Notes: a model not told the origin generated them from the sequence alone. Shown: positions 45,763-60,825, numbered from the stretch's first letter. The stretch is 64,000 bases of DNA from an uncultured Actinomycetota bacterium (GCA_963749905.1 CAVVOF010000003.1:980235-1044234); one strand, 5' to 3'. Numbers and translations are program-made.

Positions 45763-46920
45763 ATGGGGGAGTCACCGCGCCGGCCGATCAGGGTGATGCA
45801 CGTCATCGCCCGCATGAATGTGGGCGGGCCTGCGGTGGAGATCACCGAACTCATGCGCGGCCTCGACCCCGGTCGTATCAGCCAGCGTCTGGTGACGGGC
45901 CATTGCGGAGTCGACGAGGCCGACTTCCTGCAGACGCAGGCGGTTGACGTGTCCGCTACGAGGATCGAGGGCCTCGGGCGAAGCATCCGACCCGCAGACG
46001 ACGCACGCGCCCTGGCGCGGTTGGTGCAGATGATCCGAGCCTCGCGCCCGGACATAGTGCACACGCACACCGCGAAGGCCGGAGTCCTCGGACGCGTGGC
46101 TGCCGTGATTGCGGGTACCGGCTCGGGAATCGTTCACACCCACCACGGCCATCTGCTGCACGGCTACTTCGGCCCCGCGAAGACGGCGGCAGTGGTCCGG
46201 GTGGAGCGGCAGCTGGCCTTGGTCACCGAGCGGATGGTGGCCGTCGGAGTGCAGGTGCGTGACGACCTCCTTGAGGCCGGCATCGGTCGACCGCATCAGT
46301 ACTCCGTCATCCACTCGGGCGTGCGTCCAGGGCCGCTTCCCGGGCGGTCAGAAGCTCGGCGCGAGCTTGGGCTGCCGCAGGGATCCGCGATCGTGAGCAT
46401 GATCGGAAGGCTCACGCACATCAAGAGGCCCGATCGGCTCGCCGACGTGGCTGCCCTCCTCCACGCGCAGGGCCTTGACGCCCACTTCGTCGTTGCGGGG
46501 GGAGGTGACGAGCAGCGCACCCTGTCTCAGCGGATCGAGAAGGAGGGGCTCCCGATCACGATGCTGGGTTGGCGCAGCGACCTGTGGCGCGTCCTCGCCG
46601 CAACTGACGTCGTGCTGCTGACGAGTGACAACGAGGGCACACCGCTCAGTCTCGTCCAAGCGGGTCTGGCAGGCGTGCCTGCGGTAGCGACCGACGTCGG
46701 CTCCGTTTCGGAGGTGGTGGAATCAGGGGTCACCGGGCTGCTCTGCAGCACCTCGGCAAGGGAGTTGGCCGACGCCTTGACCGTCCTCATCGGCGATCCA
46801 GAGCTGCGCTCGGCCATGGGCACGGCAGCCCGGGAGAAGGCACTGCTCGAATTCGGCGTGCAGGCCTTCCTGGATCAGCATGCTGCGCTTTACGAGGCGG
46901 TGGCGCGACGCCGGGCGTAG
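45763..46920 (+). CDS. GT4 glycosyltransferase
   Basis: HVIARMNVGGPA, VHTHTAKAG, GRLTHIKRP, LTSDNEGTPLSLVQA, ATDVG. Confidence 0.92.
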   Translation: MGESPRRPIRVMHVIARMNVGGPAVEITELMRGLDPGRISQRLVTGHCGVDEADFLQTQAVDVSATRIEGLGRSIRPADDARALARLVQMIRASRPDIVHTHTAKAGVLGRVAAVIAGTGSGIVHTHHGHLLHGYFGPAKTAAVVRVERQLALVTERMVAVGVQVRDDLLEAGIGRPHQYSVIHSGVRPGPLPGRSEARRELGLPQGSAIVSMIGRLTHIKRPDRLADVAALLHAQGLDAHFVVAGGGDEQRTLSQRIEKEGLPITMLGWRSDLWRVLAATDVVLLTSDNEGTPLSLVQAGLAGVPAVATDVGSVSEVVESGVTGLLCSTSARELADALTVLIGDPELRSAMGTAAREKALLEFGVQAFLDQHAALYEAVARRRA

Positions 46921-46929
46921 GAGACTGCG

Positions 46930-48036
46930 CTACTGCGCGGCGCTCAGGATGCGCTCCGCAACCTGAGCGGCCGGCTCCTCGGGACCGGCCCACACCATCT
47001 GGTATGTCTGCTGGCGCATGGCCGCCAGCCGCCAGAAGTGGTCACTGGCGTTCGCGGGAGTGGCGATCTCCACCACTCGCGCAGAGCTCGGGCTGAAGGC
47101 CACGTTGGACAGGCCGGCGCCGTGCGTTCCCATCACGACGGCCGCCTCTGCGAACAGCGACACCTGCTCGGTCAGGGAAAGCGTGTGGCCCTCGACGACC
47201 TCGAGCTGCGGGAACATCCGCCGCAGGTTCGCGATCACGCCCTGCTCCTGCGGCATCGACCTTCGGAAGCCGACCCGTGACACGTACAGCCACCGGTGGC
47301 CCGGGGTGTCTGCGAGTCCGAAATGAGCGCGCAGCGTTGCAAGGCTCGACGGATGTACGTGCGAACTGAGGAACCCGCTAGCCGCCAGCCGCTGGACCGT
47401 GACCTTGGTGGCCGGTGTCGCGTGCACCTCGTTGGGGAGGGTGGATAGCGCGTCGGAAACGTAGCGGTGCCGGTTCGCGGGAGCGAGAACGCCTGCCTCG
47501 ACACCAAGGTGGTCCCGGGAGTAGGCGAGGGATGACAGCAGCGCCGGGAGGTCCTCGACAAGGAAGTGGTAGTAAGTGTGACTCGGCAGGACGGCCCAGG
47601 TCCCCCTGATTCGCTCGCGTGCCGAGCGTCGCGCGAGCCCCCGGACATCCTGTGATCGGGAGTAGCGGCTGTCGCCGCCCATGACCTCCACAACGGGGGC
47701 GCCCTCCGATCCCCAGACGGCCCCCGATTCGGGCGCCACGGAAGCCTCGGCAAGGCAGTAGCTCCAGGACGAGGGGATCGCCTGGTCCCTCGGGAGCCAC
47801 TCCGGAAGATCTCGCCGTGCGGGGAACCGAAGCACCTCTGCTGGGTGGCGTAGCCGCATGGCCTCCACCGTTGCCGTGAGGCGATCGGGCGGGCGGGTGG
47901 CGAGCGGACGAGACGCGGTCGACGTGCCTACTCGACCCGCGATGATGCGCTCGCAGGCGCGCAGCAGGGCCGTTCCGCGCCGGGCGTTCCAGTAGCGCAG
48001 GCGGTACTCCCAAGATTCCCGTCGGTCGGAGGTCAT
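46930..48036 (-). CDS. GT61 / DUF563 family glycosyltransferase
   Basis: TYYHFLVEDLP, LYVSR, R...QE, LSLTEQVSLFAEAAVVMGTHGAGLSN. Confidence 0.85.
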   Translation of the reverse strand: MTSDRRESWEYRLRYWNARRGTALLRACERIIAGRVGTSTASRPLATRPPDRLTATVEAMRLRHPAEVLRFPARRDLPEWLPRDQAIPSSWSYCLAEASVAPESGAVWGSEGAPVVEVMGGDSRYSRSQDVRGLARRSARERIRGTWAVLPSHTYYHFLVEDLPALLSSLAYSRDHLGVEAGVLAPANRHRYVSDALSTLPNEVHATPATKVTVQRLAASGFLSSHVHPSSLATLRAHFGLADTPGHRWLYVSRVGFRRSMPQEQGVIANLRRMFPQLEVVEGHTLSLTEQVSLFAEAAVVMGTHGAGLSNVAFSPSSARVVEIATPANASDHFWRLAAMRQQTYQMVWAGPEEPAAQVAERILSAAQ

Positions 48037-49100
48037 CGATGCAGATGCTCCCAGCCGAGCCCGGTGAATGACGGGCCGATGATCGCCTCGCTGTACGCGA
48101 CCCCGATGTGCCCCGCGTTCCACTCAAGGAGCCGGACGTCCTCCTTGGCGTCCACCGTCAGGTCCCACCCGATCAGGCCGAAATGGGGGAACCGCTCGTG
48201 CAGGCCGCGGGCGAGTTCGACGGCCTCGCGATAGCGAGGCAGTCGCCCGCCCGGCACGGTTCTGCCCGTTTCCGGATGCACCGGGCTGGGGAGCCAATCG
48301 TCGCCGTGACCGATCTCGGCCAGACGGCCGTCATCGGAGACGACGGCGACCATGAACTTGCTTCCCCCCCGCACGGCGTCCTGGCCGACGCGTCCGAACT
48401 TCACATTGCCGCAACGCACGGTGACCTCGCCGTCCAGCTCGCGAACGGTGACGATCCGATAGGTGGCGACGGGTCCACTGACTACTGCCTCGAGAGATGC
48501 GTGCGGTCGTATCCGCTCCTGGATCACAGCGTCCCCCAGCGTGTTCGCCTCCGCGCCGCGCAGTTCATCGAGTGACATGCTCCGAACCTGGTAGCCGCGG
48601 TACCCACCGTCTCGCTTGACGATGACAGTGTCGTGGACAGCCGCTATCGCCTCAAGCAGCCTCGTTCGTCCGATCTCCAGGAGATCCCGGTCATACCACC
48701 TGCCCCGGAGGACGTATCCGAGATCGGGGAGCGGAGCGCCCGGCAGCAGTCTGCGCGTCAGCGTCTTCGTGCTCGCCAGGCTCCCCAGGTGACCCGACAT
48801 CGCCGGCCCCACCCACCGGCCCATGTAGGTGGCCGGGATCCAGCCCTCCAGGAACTCCCCTCGCATGGCGGTGTAGACGTAGAGCCAAGGAGCGTGCCAT
48901 CGCGAACCGAGTACGTCCGTCGCGTACTGATCGCACGAGCGGCGCTGCGCGGAGTCCAGGTGGGCGCCCGCGTTGCGGACCGCGTTGTCCAGGGACTCCA
49001 GGGCGTCGATCCGCTGCGCCCGGTATGCCCGTGCGTGCTCGACGGAGGCGGCCAGGCTCTCCCAGCGCGTCGCAGCCCTGCGGGCTAGGTTGCTGACCAC
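48033..49100 (-). CDS. Sugar-transfer-associated ATP-grasp protein
   Basis: VIVKRDGGYRG, VIQERI..H, ATYRIVT, HPETG, IGWDL, LLEWN. Confidence 0.8.
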   Translation of the reverse strand: MVSNLARRAATRWESLAASVEHARAYRAQRIDALESLDNAVRNAGAHLDSAQRRSCDQYATDVLGSRWHAPWLYVYTAMRGEFLEGWIPATYMGRWVGPAMSGHLGSLASTKTLTRRLLPGAPLPDLGYVLRGRWYDRDLLEIGRTRLLEAIAAVHDTVIVKRDGGYRGYQVRSMSLDELRGAEANTLGDAVIQERIRPHASLEAVVSGPVATYRIVTVRELDGEVTVRCGNVKFGRVGQDAVRGGSKFMVAVVSDDGRLAEIGHGDDWLPSPVHPETGRTVPGGRLPRYREAVELARGLHERFPHFGLIGWDLTVDAKEDVRLLEWNAGHIGVAYSEAIIGPSFTGLGWEHLHR

Positions 49101-49203
49101 GTTCCGTACCTCTCGTCGACTACATCCTGCCGTGTCGTCCCGGCGGCCGCTCGCGGTTGGAGGCTCGGGGCGGGTGCCACCGCCCCGATTAGGCTGGCGA
49201 CCC

Positions 49204-49977
49204 ATGGCGACCGTCGACGTGCTGATGCCAGTGCGGGAGCCCGCGCCGTGGCTGCGCCACTCGCTGGATGGCCTGATGGAGGAGTCGGACGTCGACTGGA
49301 GACTTGTGCTCGTCGTGCACGGACCCGATGAGGCCACGTCGCGCACGGCAGACCGCTATCCAGTCCCACTCACCCTGTGCCATGCGGACGCGTCGTGTTC
49401 GCTCTCCGAGGTGCTCAACGTGGGGCTGGCCAACTGCACCGCTCCCTTCGTCGCCCGTGTGGATTCGGATGACGTCCCCCTGCGTGGACGTCTCGCGGAG
49501 ACGTCTCGACGCCTGGCCGAGGATCCAGATCTGACGGCCGTGGCTTCGTGGTCGGAGCTCGTCGACGCGGACGGTCGCGTCGCGGGCCGGGGTCCGCGTC
49601 CGTCGGATGAGGCGAACCTGCTGCGGGCGCTGCGATGGCGGAACGCCGTGGTGCATTCGAGTGTGACCTTCCGCCGGACCACCATCATCGACCTCGGGGG
49701 CTACACGGCAGGGCTGTCACAAGTCGAGGACTACGAACTCTGGCTCAGAGTGCTCGCCCACGGGCGATTCGGCCTGGTGCCCGAGGTGCTCGTACAGCAT
49801 CGGGTGCACCCCGACCAGGTGAGCCGGATCCGAGCAGTGCCGGCGGCCTCGGCACGGGCGGTTGGAGCTTCGCGGCTCGCGCTGGCCGACGGGCGCGGTG
49901 AGTCGGGCGCGGCGGCGCGGCTGCGTCACGCTGCCTGGTCGGGTCTGCAGACAACGCGTCGGTGGCACCGTGGCTAG
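49204..49977 (+). CDS. GT2 glycosyltransferase
   Basis: VDVLMPV, LNVGL, VARVDSDD, HSSVTFR, GGY...VEDYELWLR. Confidence 0.9.
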   Translation: MATVDVLMPVREPAPWLRHSLDGLMEESDVDWRLVLVVHGPDEATSRTADRYPVPLTLCHADASCSLSEVLNVGLANCTAPFVARVDSDDVPLRGRLAETSRRLAEDPDLTAVASWSELVDADGRVAGRGPRPSDEANLLRALRWRNAVVHSSVTFRRTTIIDLGGYTAGLSQVEDYELWLRVLAHGRFGLVPEVLVQHRVHPDQVSRIRAVPAASARAVGASRLALADGRGESGAAARLRHAAWSGLQTTRRWHRG

Positions 49978-51247
49978 GACGAGCCGGATTGCAGTCGAGC
50001 AGGTCCAGAACGTGGATGGCACCGTCAATCGCATGATCATGCAGGGCCGTGGCTCGATCGTGCTGCCAAGGACGATCCGCGTCGAGTATCTCCATGTCGA
50101 TGAATCGAGTCCGAGGTCGGTCGACGTGCTCGACGGATATCTGATGGGGGCTCTCCACTGGGCGATGGCAATCGGCGATCCGCTGGTGGTAGGTGGGCCG
50201 GTCACCCGAGCGGCTCTGCGGAATGCCGATGCGCTGATGGAGATCTGGGAGAGCTGGGTTCCGGACCGTTACCGGCGGATCGACATCCGTCCGGACACGG
50301 TGGTGGATGCCCCAGCGGGTGCCCTCTGGGAAGGCGACGGGGAGCGCGCGATTGCCGCCTTCTCGGGTGGTGTGGACTCGACCTTCACCCTGCTGAGGCA
50401 CGTCACTGGTTCCCCCGTTGCTTGGCCGTACGAGGTCCGGGACTCCGTCATGGTGCATGGCTTCGACGTTCCGCTTCACGACCGCTCGGCATTCGAGGGT
50501 CTCGTCAGGCGCACTGATCCGCTTCTCGAGGCGCTCGGCGTGCAGCGCCACGTCGTCAGGACCAACGTGCGCGAGTGGCCAGAACTCGACTGGGAGCAGA
50601 CCTATGGCGCACAGCTCGCCTGCGTGCTCCACCAGTTCTCGGGCGAATTCACCCACGGACTGATAGCGGGAGGGCCGCACTACCTGTCTCGGTGGACCGG
50701 TTGGGGAAGCACCGCACTCACGGACCCGCTGCTGTCGGGAGCTCGCATGGCGATCGTCCACGATGGTGCGGCCTTCACCCGGATCCCGAAGGTCTCGGTC
50801 ATCGCAGGTCACGACGTCGCGAAGGCTTCCGTCAAGGTGTGCTGGCAGGGGCCGTCACCCGAGCGGAACTGCGGCACATGCGAGAAGTGCCTTCGCACCA
50901 GGCTTTCCTTCTTGGCGGTCGGAGAGACCGAACCAGGATGCTTCGACGGTTCCCTTGACCTGGGTGCCATCCGAAGGATCTCCGTGCACAACCATCACGG
51001 CCTTCGGGACCTGCATCGCATCGTGGACTACTGCGACGCTCACGGGGTGGAGGGACACTGGCTCGACGCGCTGCGCTCGCGGTTGGACGAGCTGGACGCG
51101 AGTCACGTCGCAGGCGGTCCCGGCGGTCGGCGTCGGGTGCGGGCAGCCGGGGCACGTCGAACTCTCAGGCGGCTTCGAATGCGAGCCCGGGTTGCGGCGA
51201 GGGGTGCTACTCGGTTGAGCCGCTCAGCGGATCGACCTGAGTCGTGA
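49970..51247 (+). CDS. PP-loop (adenine nucleotide alpha-hydrolase) protein with QueC-like Cys motif
   Basis: AAFSGGVDSTFTL PP-loop, VHGFD, and C-terminal VCW-x7-NCGTCEKC. Confidence 0.65.
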   Translation: MARTSRIAVEQVQNVDGTVNRMIMQGRGSIVLPRTIRVEYLHVDESSPRSVDVLDGYLMGALHWAMAIGDPLVVGGPVTRAALRNADALMEIWESWVPDRYRRIDIRPDTVVDAPAGALWEGDGERAIAAFSGGVDSTFTLLRHVTGSPVAWPYEVRDSVMVHGFDVPLHDRSAFEGLVRRTDPLLEALGVQRHVVRTNVREWPELDWEQTYGAQLACVLHQFSGEFTHGLIAGGPHYLSRWTGWGSTALTDPLLSGARMAIVHDGAAFTRIPKVSVIAGHDVAKASVKVCWQGPSPERNCGTCEKCLRTRLSFLAVGETEPGCFDGSLDLGAIRRISVHNHHGLRDLHRIVDYCDAHGVEGHWLDALRSRLDELDASHVAGGPGGRRRVRAAGARRTLRRLRMRARVAARGATRLSRSADRPES

Positions 51248-52323
51248 CGGCCCACCCGAGTTTCGGGCTGCTGGTCGCCCCGACGATGAACCTTGGTGAC
51301 GATATCCAGGCCCTGGCCGCGCTCCGGTATCTGCCCGGCGCCAGCTACCTCATCGACCGGGATGACCTCGGCGCCGCGGCCGCTCCTGCCGGAACCCCGC
51401 TGGTGGCGAACGGTTGGTGGGTCAACTATCCCGAGCGACTCAGCATGTCCACGTGCCGGCTGGATCCGCTGCTCACGTCGATCCACATCGCTCGTTCGGG
51501 GGTCCTCAGCGCGAACGGCACCTCGGTCATCGACGTGCTCGACAGGCCGGAGGTCCTGGAGTACCTACGCGAGCGCGGACCCGTGGGCTGCCGGGATCTC
51601 GCCTCTCGTGACCTGCTGGTCGAGCGCGGCGTCGACGCGTTCTTCTCTGGTTGCCTGACGTTGACCCTGCCGTTGACGGCCAAGGGCGTCGCACAGCCTT
51701 CCGCAACTCGAATCCTGGCGGTGGATATGCCGCGTCGTCTCATGGCACTTGTACGCAGATGGAGTGGTCTGCCGGTCGCGACGTTGACGAACTGGATCTC
51801 GCCGCGGGCCGCGGGCCGGGAGCGCCTCCTGGCTGCTCGTCATCGACTGCTGCAGATCGAGCGGGCGCACGCGGTCATCACCACCCGCCTCCACGTGGCC
51901 CTTCCCTGCATCTCGCTTGGTGTCCCCGTGCTGTGGGTGGTGCCCCGCGGACCGGATAGTCGAGTCGACTCCTACCGATCGTGGGTTCCCACGAGCACTG
52001 TCGAGGGCTTGGCCGAGGAGCTGGGTCGGCGGGCGGATGGTTGGCCCGCCAACCCGCGAGCACATGAGGACACGGCCGCCGCACTCGCCGAGTCCGTGCG
52101 ATCCTGGGTATCCGGACGGCGCGCCACTCCTCCCGGAGATAGACACCCACCCGGCGCGGCCCCTCTGGTCACATACGACGGCCTGACCGCCGAGGCGACC
52201 AGACGCTGGGCAGATCTCGACCGCGACGCGAGCTTGCGGGTGCGGCATGCTCGCTGGGCGATGACGGATCGCATTCGACACCGCCGCCGCATTGTCGATG
52301 AGGTGACGAGATCGGGCCTCTAG
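51244..52323 (+). CDS. Polysaccharide pyruvyltransferase family protein
   Basis: NLGDDIQALA, GCRD, FSGCLTLTL, VITTRLHVALPCISLGVP. Confidence 0.85.
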   Translation: MTAHPSFGLLVAPTMNLGDDIQALAALRYLPGASYLIDRDDLGAAAAPAGTPLVANGWWVNYPERLSMSTCRLDPLLTSIHIARSGVLSANGTSVIDVLDRPEVLEYLRERGPVGCRDLASRDLLVERGVDAFFSGCLTLTLPLTAKGVAQPSATRILAVDMPRRLMALVRRWSGLPVATLTNWISPRAAGRERLLAARHRLLQIERAHAVITTRLHVALPCISLGVPVLWVVPRGPDSRVDSYRSWVPTSTVEGLAEELGRRADGWPANPRAHEDTAAALAESVRSWVSGRRATPPGDRHPPGAAPLVTYDGLTAEATRRWADLDRDASLRVRHARWAMTDRIRHRRRIVDEVTRSGL

Positions 52324-56640: not shown

Positions 56641-57565
56641 GGCTCCACGGTTCCGCGCACGCGCCACTCCTCTGCCGGGAGCCCAGTCCGCCGGAGGAGG
56701 GCGTTCGCGTATGTCGCCGACGCCGCCGGTGATGCCCGCCAGCCTCGTCCACTCCGCGGGGTGGCGGCGCACGTACTGGGCGAGCCAGGCGGCCAGGTGC
56801 GCGTCCTCCTTGCGCGCCGCCCTGCCGTAGCTCGCCCGGTCGGAGTTGGACCGGCCGTAGATGATGCTCACCGGCTCCGGGAACTCCTCGACGTGCGTGG
56901 TGGGCGGTGCCGCGGCGATCGCCATCTCGATGCGCATCGGTCCGGTCTTGCGGGGCCGGCTCGTCGCGCAGGGCGAGGAAGCTCTCGAACGGGCAGACCG
57001 ATCCGCTCATCTGCATGTAGGTCGGCTGCACCAGCTGCTGCCTGATCCACTCGAGTACGGGCAGCCGAGTGGGACCCGCGACCCGGGAAGCTCGTCCAGC
57101 TCTCCAGTGGCTCGTCCCAGGGTCCGTCGAACGGAACCGGTCCGCCTGCTCGTGGCGCATGGCCCAGGGGCCGAAGTACGCGGTGCCGGGCCGCAGCGGC
57201 CAGCGCGCCGTGCGCATCGACGATCGCGTCGATGCCGCGCGACCTGACTTCGTCGTCGTAGGCCAGCCAGTAGATCCAGTCGCTCGGGTCGGACGCCGTT
57301 CCGTTCGAGGTGGATCGACCCAGAACGCCTGATGTGCCATGGTCGGCAGTTCGCGCCCGGTGCAGATCACCTCCACGCCCGGGTGCTGCTCAGCGAAGTC
57401 GCCTTGCCTGCGCATGTCCGTCGGAATCAGGCGACGAGGTGACGCTCAGCAGCACGCGCTGGAAGTGGTGGCAGGCTCGCCGCGATCGACGTCCAGGCAT
57501 CGTTCGAACCGCGCACCTCCCCGCCAGACCATGACGACGAGGATGGCTGTGGACTGCCCGGTCAT
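56637..57565 (-). CDS. GT-A fold glycosyltransferase (frameshifts)
   Basis: ILVVMVWRGG, WIYWLAYDDE (DXD-like), QMSGSV; ATGA and GTGA overlaps with both neighbours. Confidence 0.55.
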
Positions 57566-58768
57566 CGCGTCGCCTGCGCGTAGACGTCGAGGTACTGGCG
57601 CACGACGACGGGACCCGACCAGGTGGCAACCGCTCGCTCGCGTGCGGCCCGGCCCCAGACGTCGTCGCCTCGGGCGTCGGAGATCGCCTCGACCAGTCCG
57701 ACGGCGAGTGCGTCGGCGTCGCCCGCCGGCGCGAGATAGCCGGTGCCGTGGTGCTGCGACGATGTCCGGCAGTCCGCCGATCTCGAACGCGACCACGGCG
57801 CGTCCGCAGTCTGCGCCTCCATGGCGGTCAGCGGCATGTTGTCCTCGCGACTGGGAACGGCGAGCACGTCGGCCGCGCAGTAGAGCGTGCGCAGGGCCTC
57901 GTCTCCGCTCAGCGGTCCCAGCCCAGGTGACCGGGATGCCACTGGCGATGTGGAGCGATCCGCCTCGGCGGGCCCGCAATGAGCGAGGCTGGAGGTCCGG
58001 GTGGGCGTCGCGTACGGCCGGCAGGGCCAGCTCGAGCAGGTCGAAGCCCTTCCGGTGGTCGTGGATGCCGGCCGAGGCGAGGAACACGATGGTCGGCACG
58101 TCCGAGCGGAACGCCGAGGACCGCGTCGTGCCTCAACGCGGTCCATCGGGGCGAACACGTCCGCGTCGACGACGTGCGGGATGCGGACGATCGGCCAGTC
58201 GCGCATGAGTGCGCTCTCCTGTGCGGCCTCGCGTCAGCCACGTGCTGGCCGGGACGACTGTGCGTGGGCGCCAGCAGCCGTCGCTTCCGCTCCCACGCAT
58301 CCCGGTCGAGGTCCCAGCCCGGACTCGGTCGCCGGGCGGTTGTCCTTGGTGTATCCGGCCCGCCAGCGGGCGTCGGGGGCGTCCACCCCGTAGTGCTCGG
58401 TGCCGCAGAAGGTCCACATGTCGTAGAGCGTCCAGATGACGGGCTTCTCGATGCGGCCGATCTGCTCGATGGTCAGGAAGCCGTCCGTGACCCAGTGCAG
58501 GTCGACGATGTCGGCGTCGGTGGCGTTGATCTCGCGGCGCGCGGAGGCTGCCGAACCGGGCCGGTGAGCGCCACGTCGAGACGGGTGAGCGCTGCAGTCG
58601 CCAGAGCCGTCGATCGAGTTCGCTGGCGATCCGGAATCGGGCGCCGTGCGCGGTCGTCAGAGACGAGCGGATGCCCTCCTTGACCATCGCCTGGTGGAGC
58701 GCAGTCGCCGCTCGCGCCGCGCCGCCGTTGGTGGCGTAGGTGCTTAGATGGAGCACGGTGGGCGGCAC
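57562..58768 (-). CDS. GT4 glycosyltransferase, WcaC-like (frameshifts)
   Basis: HLSTYATNGGAARAA, LHWV, KPVIWTLYDMWTFCG, PSTWL, HRKGFDLL, VPSREDN.PLTAMEA. Confidence 0.88.
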
Positions 58769-58786
58769 GGGCCCACGGTAACGGGT

Positions 58787-60825
58787 GTGCCCGCGCCCCG
58801 GGACGGACGCGGAGGTGCACCGGGGTGGACGCCCTGTTCCTCGTCGCCTACCTCGTGCTCCCGTCGCTCACGCTGTGGCGGTCTCGCAGCATCGCGTGGA
58901 CCGTCATCGATCGTGGGCGCCTCAGTGTCCATCGTCGGCGCGCTCGTCAGCTTCGTGGTCGACCACGTGCTCGCTCTGGACCTGGACCCAGCTGCAGTGG
59001 GTGCTGCTGCTGGCGCTTGCCGTACCCGCCGTCCTGTTCGTTCACGCGCCGGCCCGACGGTGATTCGCGCCTCGGCGGTACCAGTTCGCTGACCATCCTG
59101 GTTCCGGTGCTCGGACTCGCGGCCTTTCTGACGGTCGTGACCACTTGGTGGACCGAGACGCCTGCATTCCTCACGCCGGTCAGCTTCCTGATGGGTCACG
59201 CCGTGGCGGAGGACAACGCCAAGTGGCTGGACTTCGCCGCCTAGCTCGCCGCCGGCGTGCCCGATCGACCAGTACGTGCCGATGGGCGGGCCGCTGCAGC
59301 TGTTCCTGGTGTTCGTCGCCACGCTGATGGGCTGTCCTGTCGCAGGTCGACCCTCGGTGGCTTCAACGAGGTCATGGTCGCCGCCAACACGGTCATCTAC
59401 GGGCAGTTCGTGCTGGTGGCGCTCGCGCCGCTCGCTCTGGCACCGCTGGCAGAAGCACGGATTCGCCGACCCGTTCCGGAGGTCGGCGGGCCGCGTGCGA
59501 CTGCCGTGGCCGCTGGTGTGGATCGGGGTCGTCCTGCTCGTCACGACCGTGCTGCTCCTGACGGCCTACGGGCACCTGACTCTGCAGTGGACCGTCATCG
59601 TCGCCGCCCTGTGGGCGTCCGCGTATCTGGTGAGGTCGCCGGTACCGCGGGCACAGCTGCTCACCTCGCTCATCGTCGCTGCCGGCATGACGGTGTGGCT
59701 GCCGATGAACGCGATCGCGGCGGTGCTCGTCGTCGGTTGGCTGGTCGTGCTGGTTGCCCGCGTCATCCGCGAGGGACGCGCCGGCGCTGACTGGGTGGGA
59801 TTGGACATCGTCGTGGTCGTGTCGGCGGTCATCGGCGAGCCGTTGCGGTCCAGTGTCGCGTTCGTGCTCGCCTCTGCACCGACCGCTGGAGGGGCGCTGG
59901 AGACCGTCGGGGAGGCCTTGGCGGCGGCGTCCGGGCGGCTGTGGGCTCTCGCGCCGGCACTCTCTCCGGTGTGGGCGGGTCTGACGGAGTCGACCCTGTT
60001 CGAGGCGGGCGGCGGGACAGAGCAGGACCACCGCGATCCTCGTGGCTCTGGCTGCCGCAAGCGACTGTGGCAGCAGCGCTGGTGGTCTCGAGGCAGCGGG
60101 CCCGTCGCGGCTACGTGAGGCTCCTCCCCGTCGTCCTGCTGGCCGGGTTTGCGGTCGCTCTGAACGGGCTCGACCAGTGGGCCACAGGCAGCGCACCGCA
60201 CTACGGCTCGTTGAAGTTCACGTTCATGGCCATGATCGTGATCGCGGCTGTCACTCTGCCCGTGGGCATGCTCCTGCTGGACCCGCGGGCGAGCGGAATG
60301 ACCCCGGCTCGGTGGACTGCGGTGGGGGCGGTCACCCTCATCCTCGTGGTCGACGGACTGCTCGTACGCTCGGTCGCCGCGGCTCGACCGGACCAGTGGT
60401 CCCCGCCGGTTCCCTTCGACAACGCGCGCAGCTACTGGTGGCCCGCGGACGTCAACGGCACCTCGAACCAGCCGATCGCCGGCAATCCGGTTGCGTGCGT
60501 CTACCTGCCGCAGGGGGCCAAGGCTCCGTCCGGCATTCTCGAGTCGCAACTGTCCGACCCGCAGCGCGTGTACTCGTGCACGAGGCTGCTGGCCGGTCTG
60601 GCGGGCGAGGACGCAGGCGCTCAGCCGCTGGTGGACTGGTTGCGCCGGGAGTGGCTGACCAACACTCGGGCCTGGACGGACGTGCACGGCTATCTGTCGG
60701 CCATGCCCGACTCCGTCCTCGATCGCCCGGTGATCCTCCTGGACGATGGCAGCAATGTCATCGGGCTGGAGAGCGTCAGGACTCTGCTGTCGAAGTATCC
60801 TGCGGAGGCCGGGCAGCAGTGGTGA
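58787..60825 (+). CDS. Large polytopic membrane protein (frameshifts; start uncertain)
   Basis: Many TM segments; HAVAEDNAKWL, HYGSLK; C-terminal extracellular domain with two Cys (ACVY, YSCTR). Confidence 0.5.

Follow-up and report, generated by a model that had tools for sequence, protein, structure and literature searches.

Here we describe a two-gene unit, composed of an ATP-grasp ligase gene followed by a glycosyltransferase family 61 (GT61) gene, in a 64,000-nt stretch of DNA (hereafter the window) from an uncultured Actinomycetota bacterium (GCA_963749905.1 CAVVOF010000003.1; genome C3:980235-1044234; positions are counted from the start of the window). The unit is part of a large wall-glycopolymer locus and is probably a decoration module of this variable locus, providing an amino-acid-type side group, which is a known kind of decoration. 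The coupling of the two genes is real and is inherited within a small clade, and neither gene generally needs the other. We put forward tentatively that the ligase is an amidoligase which adds a decoration to a carboxylated residue in the wall polymer, and that GT61 belongs to the same pathway branch.

Gene structure and enzyme families

The ligase and GT61 open reading frames (ORFs) are both intact and make up a complete operon of two genes, which is bounded by a divergent GT2 gene and a convergent GT4 gene (Table 1). Both start codons are consistent with the N-termini of aligned homologues, and a GAGAGG motif is located 8 nt 5' of the ligase GTG. An earlier note on this DNA, made from the sequence alone, had reported that an ATGA overlap joins the two genes; this overlap was confirmed at 48036-48033, implying, as far as sequence can tell, translational coupling of the ligase and GT61. 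Among gene overlaps in prokaryotes, those of four bases form the most frequent class, and a single ATGA overlap is therefore little informative alone. The junction is retained in two independent orthologous loci, L007 and L019, at only 66–68% protein identity. No sigma-70 consensus was found in the 103-bp spacer between the ligase and GT2 genes, and a consensus scan for promoters and terminators was empty.

Both family assignments made in the earlier note proved correct. The ligase scores 68.7 bits against PF14397 (ATPgrasp_ST, "sugar-transfer associated ATP-grasp"; cut-off 31.4) and its partner 68.4 bits against PF04577 (Glyco_transf_61; cut-off 27), and the genome contains one copy of each family. 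PF14397 was defined by comparative genomics, according to Iyer et al. 2009 as cited in PMC13419641. An exhaustive HMMER search over representative clusters with the ligase as query returned 2348 clusters at E ≤ 1e-3, 188 of them at E < 1e-30. Nearly all of these are stand-alone proteins of ~350 aa that align almost over their full length, and the homologues bear the same precomputed PF14397 domain. A search for longer homologues yielded no fused ligase–glycosyltransferase polypeptide, which is weak evidence: the longer homologues P0035 and P0154 have no second domain, and a 632-aa open frame in genome G372 was rejected as a fusion because it consists of a 499-aa ligase plus an N-terminal extension.

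In an alignment of 65 homologues, K162, D313 and E326 do not vary, and conservation reaches at least 90% at N328, Q194, R215 and a block of residues in the N-terminal region (Y59, A60, G65, L73, Y76, F83, G86, W87 and P89). K162 is located in a K-x-D-G...G-R-G loop, and the metal site reads G-W-D313...L-E326-W-N328; the catalytic or phosphate-binding Lys and the Mg2+ ligands D...E-x-N are all kept. With its ATP loop and metal site intact, the ligase looks catalytically competent.

The AlphaFold2 (AF2) model of the ligase (predicted local distance difference test (pLDDT) 96; predicted template modelling score (pTM) 0.92) comprises an all-helical N-domain (residues 1-120) and an ATP-grasp core (residues ~125-355). 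In Foldseek, matches to ATP-grasp proteins at E ≤ 1e-3 numbered at least 500, all generic, with a template modelling (TM) score of about 0.4. VIA-align, which is independent of Foldseek, ranked ArgX/LysX (Z 14.0 and 13.4), RimK (13.4), DdlA (13.3) and the tubulin-tyrosine-ligase (TTL) and TTL-like (TTLL) proteins (11–13) as the best structures. The model and both comparisons place the protein in the ATP-grasp fold. At the sequence level, a profile search of PDB sequences reached only TTL and TTLL6, at a non-significant E of about 0.2, and the aligned pieces are the ATP loop and the metal site; the same search with the single protein gave chance matches only. The score against TIGR02291 (RimK-related alpha-L-glutamate ligase-like) is below cut-off (17.5 bits versus 314.2). 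A TupA-like identity was rejected: the ligase does not match PF14305 (TupA-like) at E ≤ 1, the genome contains no match to this family, and hhalign between the ligase and a genuine TupA-like protein, encoded beside a distant homologue in L027, gave a non-significant probability of 1.7%.

The membership of the partner in GT61 is sound. A profile of 13 homologues matched EOGT (3e-9) and POMGNT2 (1e-8), and the top ten Foldseek matches of the AF2 model (pLDDT 85.6) were all POMGNT2 (E 6e-10; TMq 0.43–0.48). Both the ligase and the GT61 models start with long helices. EOGT and POMGNT2 (PDB 7e9k, 6xi2 and 9wjk) are thus the profile matches, and POMGNT2 is the best match by fold; the window GT61 differs from these enzymes in being only about 13% identical (TM about 0.48), in lacking FnIII or luminal domains and in being a bacterial cytoplasmic enzyme.

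Pairing of ligase and GT61 across related loci

Related loci were drawn from a small neighbourhood sample (12 look-ups of exact protein matches, plus six genome regions); when metagenome contigs were scanned with the single proteins P0001 and P0009, no confirmed relative emerged. The ligase-then-GT61 order with ATGA coupling is found in L007 and L019, the latter also represented in sister samples by L020 and L021. Rather than GT61, it is the divergent GT2 and convergent GT4 genes that most constantly neighbour the ligase. The ligase keeps its position between these two genes in four related loci, with GT2 located upstream of the ligase by tblastn in L019, L033 and L006. L033 (L033:1-2014; ligase 66% identical) has the arrangement GT2 <-> ligase <- GT4 and is a natural GT61-minus variant. 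In L006 (L006:194-2345; ligase 65% identical), the same GT2 and GT4 borders enclose a second, diverged ATPgrasp_ST gene in the GT61 slot. This second ligase is 40% identical to P0001, its gene overlaps that of the first ligase by 20 nt, and it is followed by a cassette of methyltransferase(s), RgpF and ABC-transporter genes.

When the window is compared with L007 and L019, the core genes (epimerase, WecA-like and DUF2142) are 84–90% identical at the protein level, as against 60–70% for the stretch comprising GT4, GT61, the ligase, GT2, the PP-loop ATPase and the pyruvyl transferase. Such a contrast is typical of a serotype-like region that evolves fast. The variable region of L019 and L006 also contains an unannotated gene of ~320 aa (L019:11094-12080 and L006:5701-6645; 57% identical) that is absent from the window. 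An all-against-all BLAST of unannotated neighbours linked L019 and L006 only and revealed no unannotated partner conserved across contexts.

In a maximum-likelihood tree of ligases, the window gene belongs to a clade of eight rows (Shimodaira–Hasegawa-like approximate likelihood-ratio test (SH-aLRT) 99), in which the GT61-linked ligases and L033 form a subclade of four rows (SH-aLRT 95). All members of the larger clade with informative context are in wall-glycan loci, next to GT61, to GT8, IspD and Glyphos_transf, or to RgpF and ABC-transporter genes. The ligase of L001 (49% identical) comes after GT8, IspD and a teichoic-type Glyphos_transf, and that of L034 (52% identical) directly after an aldehyde dehydrogenase gene, on a 2.5-kb contig that otherwise shows one unknown gene only. 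Two members of the actinobacterial clade therefore have an aldehyde dehydrogenase gene close to that of the ligase (L034:1-2136 and L001:1178-7080); the L001 dehydrogenase carries a fused isochorismatase domain and is encoded three genes upstream of the ligase.

Across genomes the two genes are distributed very differently. The ligase subfamily is present in none of 172 same-family genomes, the 32 same-genus genomes included (E ≤ 1e-20), and GT61 is present in 35 of the 172, in copies only about 30% identical to that of the window. In ten other actinobacterial genomes with PF14397, GT61 is either absent or on another contig, and in none is it adjacent. Together with the conserved order in L007 and L019 and the variants in L033, L006 and L022 (a GT61 orthologue with no ligase; see below), these distributions indicate that the coupling is real in a small clade and that pairing is not obligatory. 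The GT61 partner is lineage-specific, new as a combination and not as a principle. Nor is the unit a new kind of system: linkage to sugar transferases is already predicted by the family name of PF14397, and the window ligase, with a score above the gathering threshold, adjoins sugar transferases as that name predicts, differing in that its subfamily is often solitary outside the actinobacterial clade.

Proposed function and alternative explanations

ATP-grasp enzymes convert a carboxylate to an acyl-phosphate, which is passed to a nucleophile, and in LysX, RimK and TTL it is a macromolecular carboxylate that is activated and then attacked by a free amino acid. LysX/ArgX, RimK and the TTL-like enzymes (PDB 3vpb, 5k2m, 4iwx, 9hq4 and 8u3z) are the nearest solved folds of the window ligase (Z 11–14) and share its K...G-R-G and D...E-x-N motifs. 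However, their sequence similarity to it is non-significant, they have the usual alpha/beta pre-ATP-grasp domain whereas the N-domain of the window ligase is all-helical, and they act on proteins whereas the target of the window ligase is likely a glycan.

The closest functional precedent for the pair is Cj1438 of the Campylobacter jejuni NCTC 11168 HS:2 capsule, a single polypeptide that combines a GT2 with a TupA-like ATP-grasp amidoligase (PMC11800379, which cites Riegert et al. 2022). The ATP-grasp C-domain of this protein amidates the C6 carboxylate of glucuronic acid (GlcA), and its GT2 domain transfers N-acetylgalactofuranosamine (GalfNAc) to the amidated acceptor only (PMC11800379). 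As in the window, a surface-polysaccharide locus provides an ATP-grasp ligase together with a glycosyltransferase as a single expression unit. The two systems differ in that Cj1438 is a fusion of PF14305 and GT2, whereas the window encodes PF14397 and GT61 in two ORFs with an ATGA overlap; in that neither a UDP-GlcA pathway nor amine-donor genes are near the window pair; and in that the window host is a monoderm actinobacterium.

The nearest folds and the Cj1438 precedent together favour an amidoligase acting on a wall-polymer carboxylate. In such a scheme, the ligase would spend ATP on converting a carboxyl group of the glycan, either nascent or lipid-linked, to an acyl-phosphate; a free amino acid or similar amine would then attack this through its amino group, leaving an amide-linked side group. 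The coupled GT61 would then add a sugar in the same pathway branch, most simply onto the modified intermediate. The glycan substrate, the reaction polarity, which amine is used and which of the two steps comes first are all inferred here. As to the order, L033 retains a ligase in the absence of GT61 and a second ligase fills the slot in L006, which is a hint that the gene downstream of the ligase elaborates the ligase product and not the reverse.

The candidate carboxylates would be those of pseudaminic acid (Pse) or of a pyruvate ketal (formed by the pyruvyl transferase), the only glycan carboxylate sources that the window encodes, or that of a uronate made elsewhere in the genome. A uronate made within the locus was rejected: the window contains no uronate pathway and no aldehyde dehydrogenase, and the sole match of the genome to a UDP-sugar dehydrogenase (ugd) is on another contig, C4. 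Of the aminoacylation of a carboxylated sugar that the earlier note proposed, the chemistry thus stands as a credible prediction, given the intact Lys and D...E-x-N residues and the amide precedent of Cj1438, and the uronate option is left without in-locus support.

The missing uronate pathway is one of several points that weigh against the amidoligase assignment. DdlA scores nearly as well as LysX and RimK, so the fold leaves the polarity of the reaction unfixed. Homologues at 34–40% identity are mostly solitary in non-sugar contexts (Nesterenkonia (L004/L005), L008, L023, L025 and L028/L029). The GT61 orthologue of L022 (49% identity) is followed by WcbI and GSCFA genes and has no ligase, which leaves the proposed order of steps weakly supported. 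The pyruvate carboxylate could instead be the target of the PP-loop ATPase encoded next to the pyruvyl transferase, and amidated pyruvate ketals go unmentioned in a review of pyruvylation (PMC6801904). Finally, although PF14397 is a large family, the literature library that was searched yielded no paper naming PF14397 or ATPgrasp_ST, and no experimentally characterised member was found.

If the polarity were reversed, the ligase would activate a small organic acid or a free amino acid and use it to N-acylate an amino sugar of the locus, in place of a missing N-acetyltransferase. The window contains two aminotransferase routes (a DegT aminotransferase with a 4,6-dehydratase, and the pseudaminic acid module), and no genome match to LbH (PF00132) or GNAT (PF00583) acetyltransferases falls inside its 64 kb, which raises the question of amino-group acylation. 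Close structural neighbours also include ligases that activate small acids, namely the Ddl-type and L-amino-acid ligases. However, the top neighbours, LysX/ArgX and RimK, activate a macromolecular carboxylate; the ligase gene is separated from the Pse module by ~20 kb and from DegT by 6 kb; only the LbH and GNAT profiles were checked, acetyltransferases being plentiful elsewhere in the genome; and in L001 an acetyltransferase adjoins the ligase. We consider this reversal unlikely.

A non-glycan target would account for the solitary homologues among unrelated genes, two of which are near tricarboxylate-transporter (TctABC) genes (L026 and L004/L005), and the nearest structures are indeed protein-modifying ligases. 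Like RimK, LysX or TTL, the window ligase would then modify a protein or peptide, or make a small metabolite, and its placement in the locus would be a passenger effect. Against this stand the well-supported eight-row clade, found in glycan loci wherever context is informative, the apparent translational coupling to a glycosyltransferase in three loci, and the slot between the same GT2 and GT4 genes in four. We regard such a target as doubtful.

Two elaborations of the amidoligase assignment are less probable again. In a processive sub-case, the ligase would polymerize a short poly-amino-acid chain on the glycan, in the manner of teichuronopeptide or of RimK poly-Glu synthesis. RimK and the TTLL polyglutamylases are among the nearest folds, and the tandem paralogues in L006 and L030 fit stepwise peptide building, but sequence is silent on processivity and this genome has a single ligase copy, and we find the sub-case improbable. 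The second, which we offer as a long shot, is that the ligase performs undescribed glycan chemistry, for example by joining an amino acid through an amide to a pyruvate ketal or to the C1 carboxylate of Pse. The slot genes would then extend the aminoacyl group: GT61 would, as EOGT does, glycosylate a side-chain hydroxyl so that the amino acid bridges two sugars, and the second ATP-grasp of L006 would add a second residue. Least probable by far is the further suggestion of the earlier note, that the ligase builds an unusual nucleotide-sugar donor for GT61 alone: the ATGA coupling and gene order conserved in the window, L007 and L019 fit it, but it is disfavoured by L033, which has a ligase without GT61 within the same four-row subclade, by the second ATP-grasp in the GT61 position of L006, by the occurrence of GT61 without the ligase in 35 of 172 same-family genomes, and by the ten PF14397 genomes without an adjacent GT61.

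Amide-linked amino acids on surface glycans alter charge, antigenicity, and phage or toxin recognition. The locus offers a compact two-gene unit with natural variants (with GT61, without GT61 and with a second ligase), which could be used to assign the first PF14397 activity and to find out whether, as in Campylobacter, the next glycosyl transfer depends on prior amidation.

Surrounding locus and distant homologues

Genes of the surrounding locus encode a WecA-like transferase, a DUF2142 membrane protein, epimerases, a 4,6-dehydratase, the DegT aminotransferase, several GT2 and GT4 enzymes and ABC transporters. G+C content is ~68% over the window. The features of the pair and its borders are collected in Table 1.

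Table 1 Coordinates of the ligase–GT61 unit and its flanking features in the window
Feature	Position	Strand	Description
ATP-grasp ligase gene	48033..49100	-	355 aa; GTG start at 49100, TGA at 48035-48033; PF14397 ATPgrasp_ST
GT61 glycosyltransferase gene	46930..48036	-	368 aa; ATG at 48036-48034, TAG at 46932-46930; PF04577
ATGA stop/start overlap	48033..48036	-	Ligase stop and GT61 start; kept in L007 and L019
Divergent intergenic spacer, ligase/GT2	49101..49203		103 bp; presumed site of both promoters
GT2 gene	49204..49977	+	Divergent from ligase; first in GT2/PP-loop ATPase/pyruvyl-transferase operon
GT4 gene	45763..46920	+	Convergent; 9 bp between GT4 stop and GT61 stop; other constant border of the slot
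Pyruvyl-transferase-family gene	51244..52323	+	In-locus glycan carboxylate source; context only

Elsewhere in the window, the match of an ORF at 57562-58233 is confined to the C-terminal half of a GT1/GT4 domain, and the two ORFs directly upstream of it (58234-58656 and 58744-59565) have no Pfam match. The ORFs in 57562-59565 may be one glycosyltransferase split by assembly errors.

Among the distant homologues of the ligase, whose subfamily is often solitary outside the actinobacterial clade, those near TctA/TctB/TctC genes are 38–40% identical (L026:473-6469, and L004:6001-13074 in L004/L005). In L026 the homologue and the Tct genes apparently share an operon with a methyltransferase gene and a gene of unknown function. 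This proximity may point to a small-carboxylate substrate in the L026 and L004/L005 lineages.

Still more distant homologues are found in polysaccharide operons. A single operon of the low-GC actinobacterial genome G330 (L027:5194-13093) encodes ugd, GT28_C, a TupA-like ATP-grasp, ATPgrasp_ST, a GT4, a DXD-type glycosyltransferase, a hexapeptide transferase and a pyruvyl transferase, and two ligase families are thus found beside two possible carboxylate sources. In genome G128 (L030:8974-14336), two tandem ATPgrasp_ST genes are accompanied by an ornithine-cyclodeaminase (OCD)/mu-crystallin gene, a third ATP-grasp gene (ATP-grasp_4) and a Bac_transf initiating transferase gene, a gene row that suggests an unusual amino-acid or peptide decoration. 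In L031/L032, an alanine racemase gene adjoins a distant member of the ligase family.

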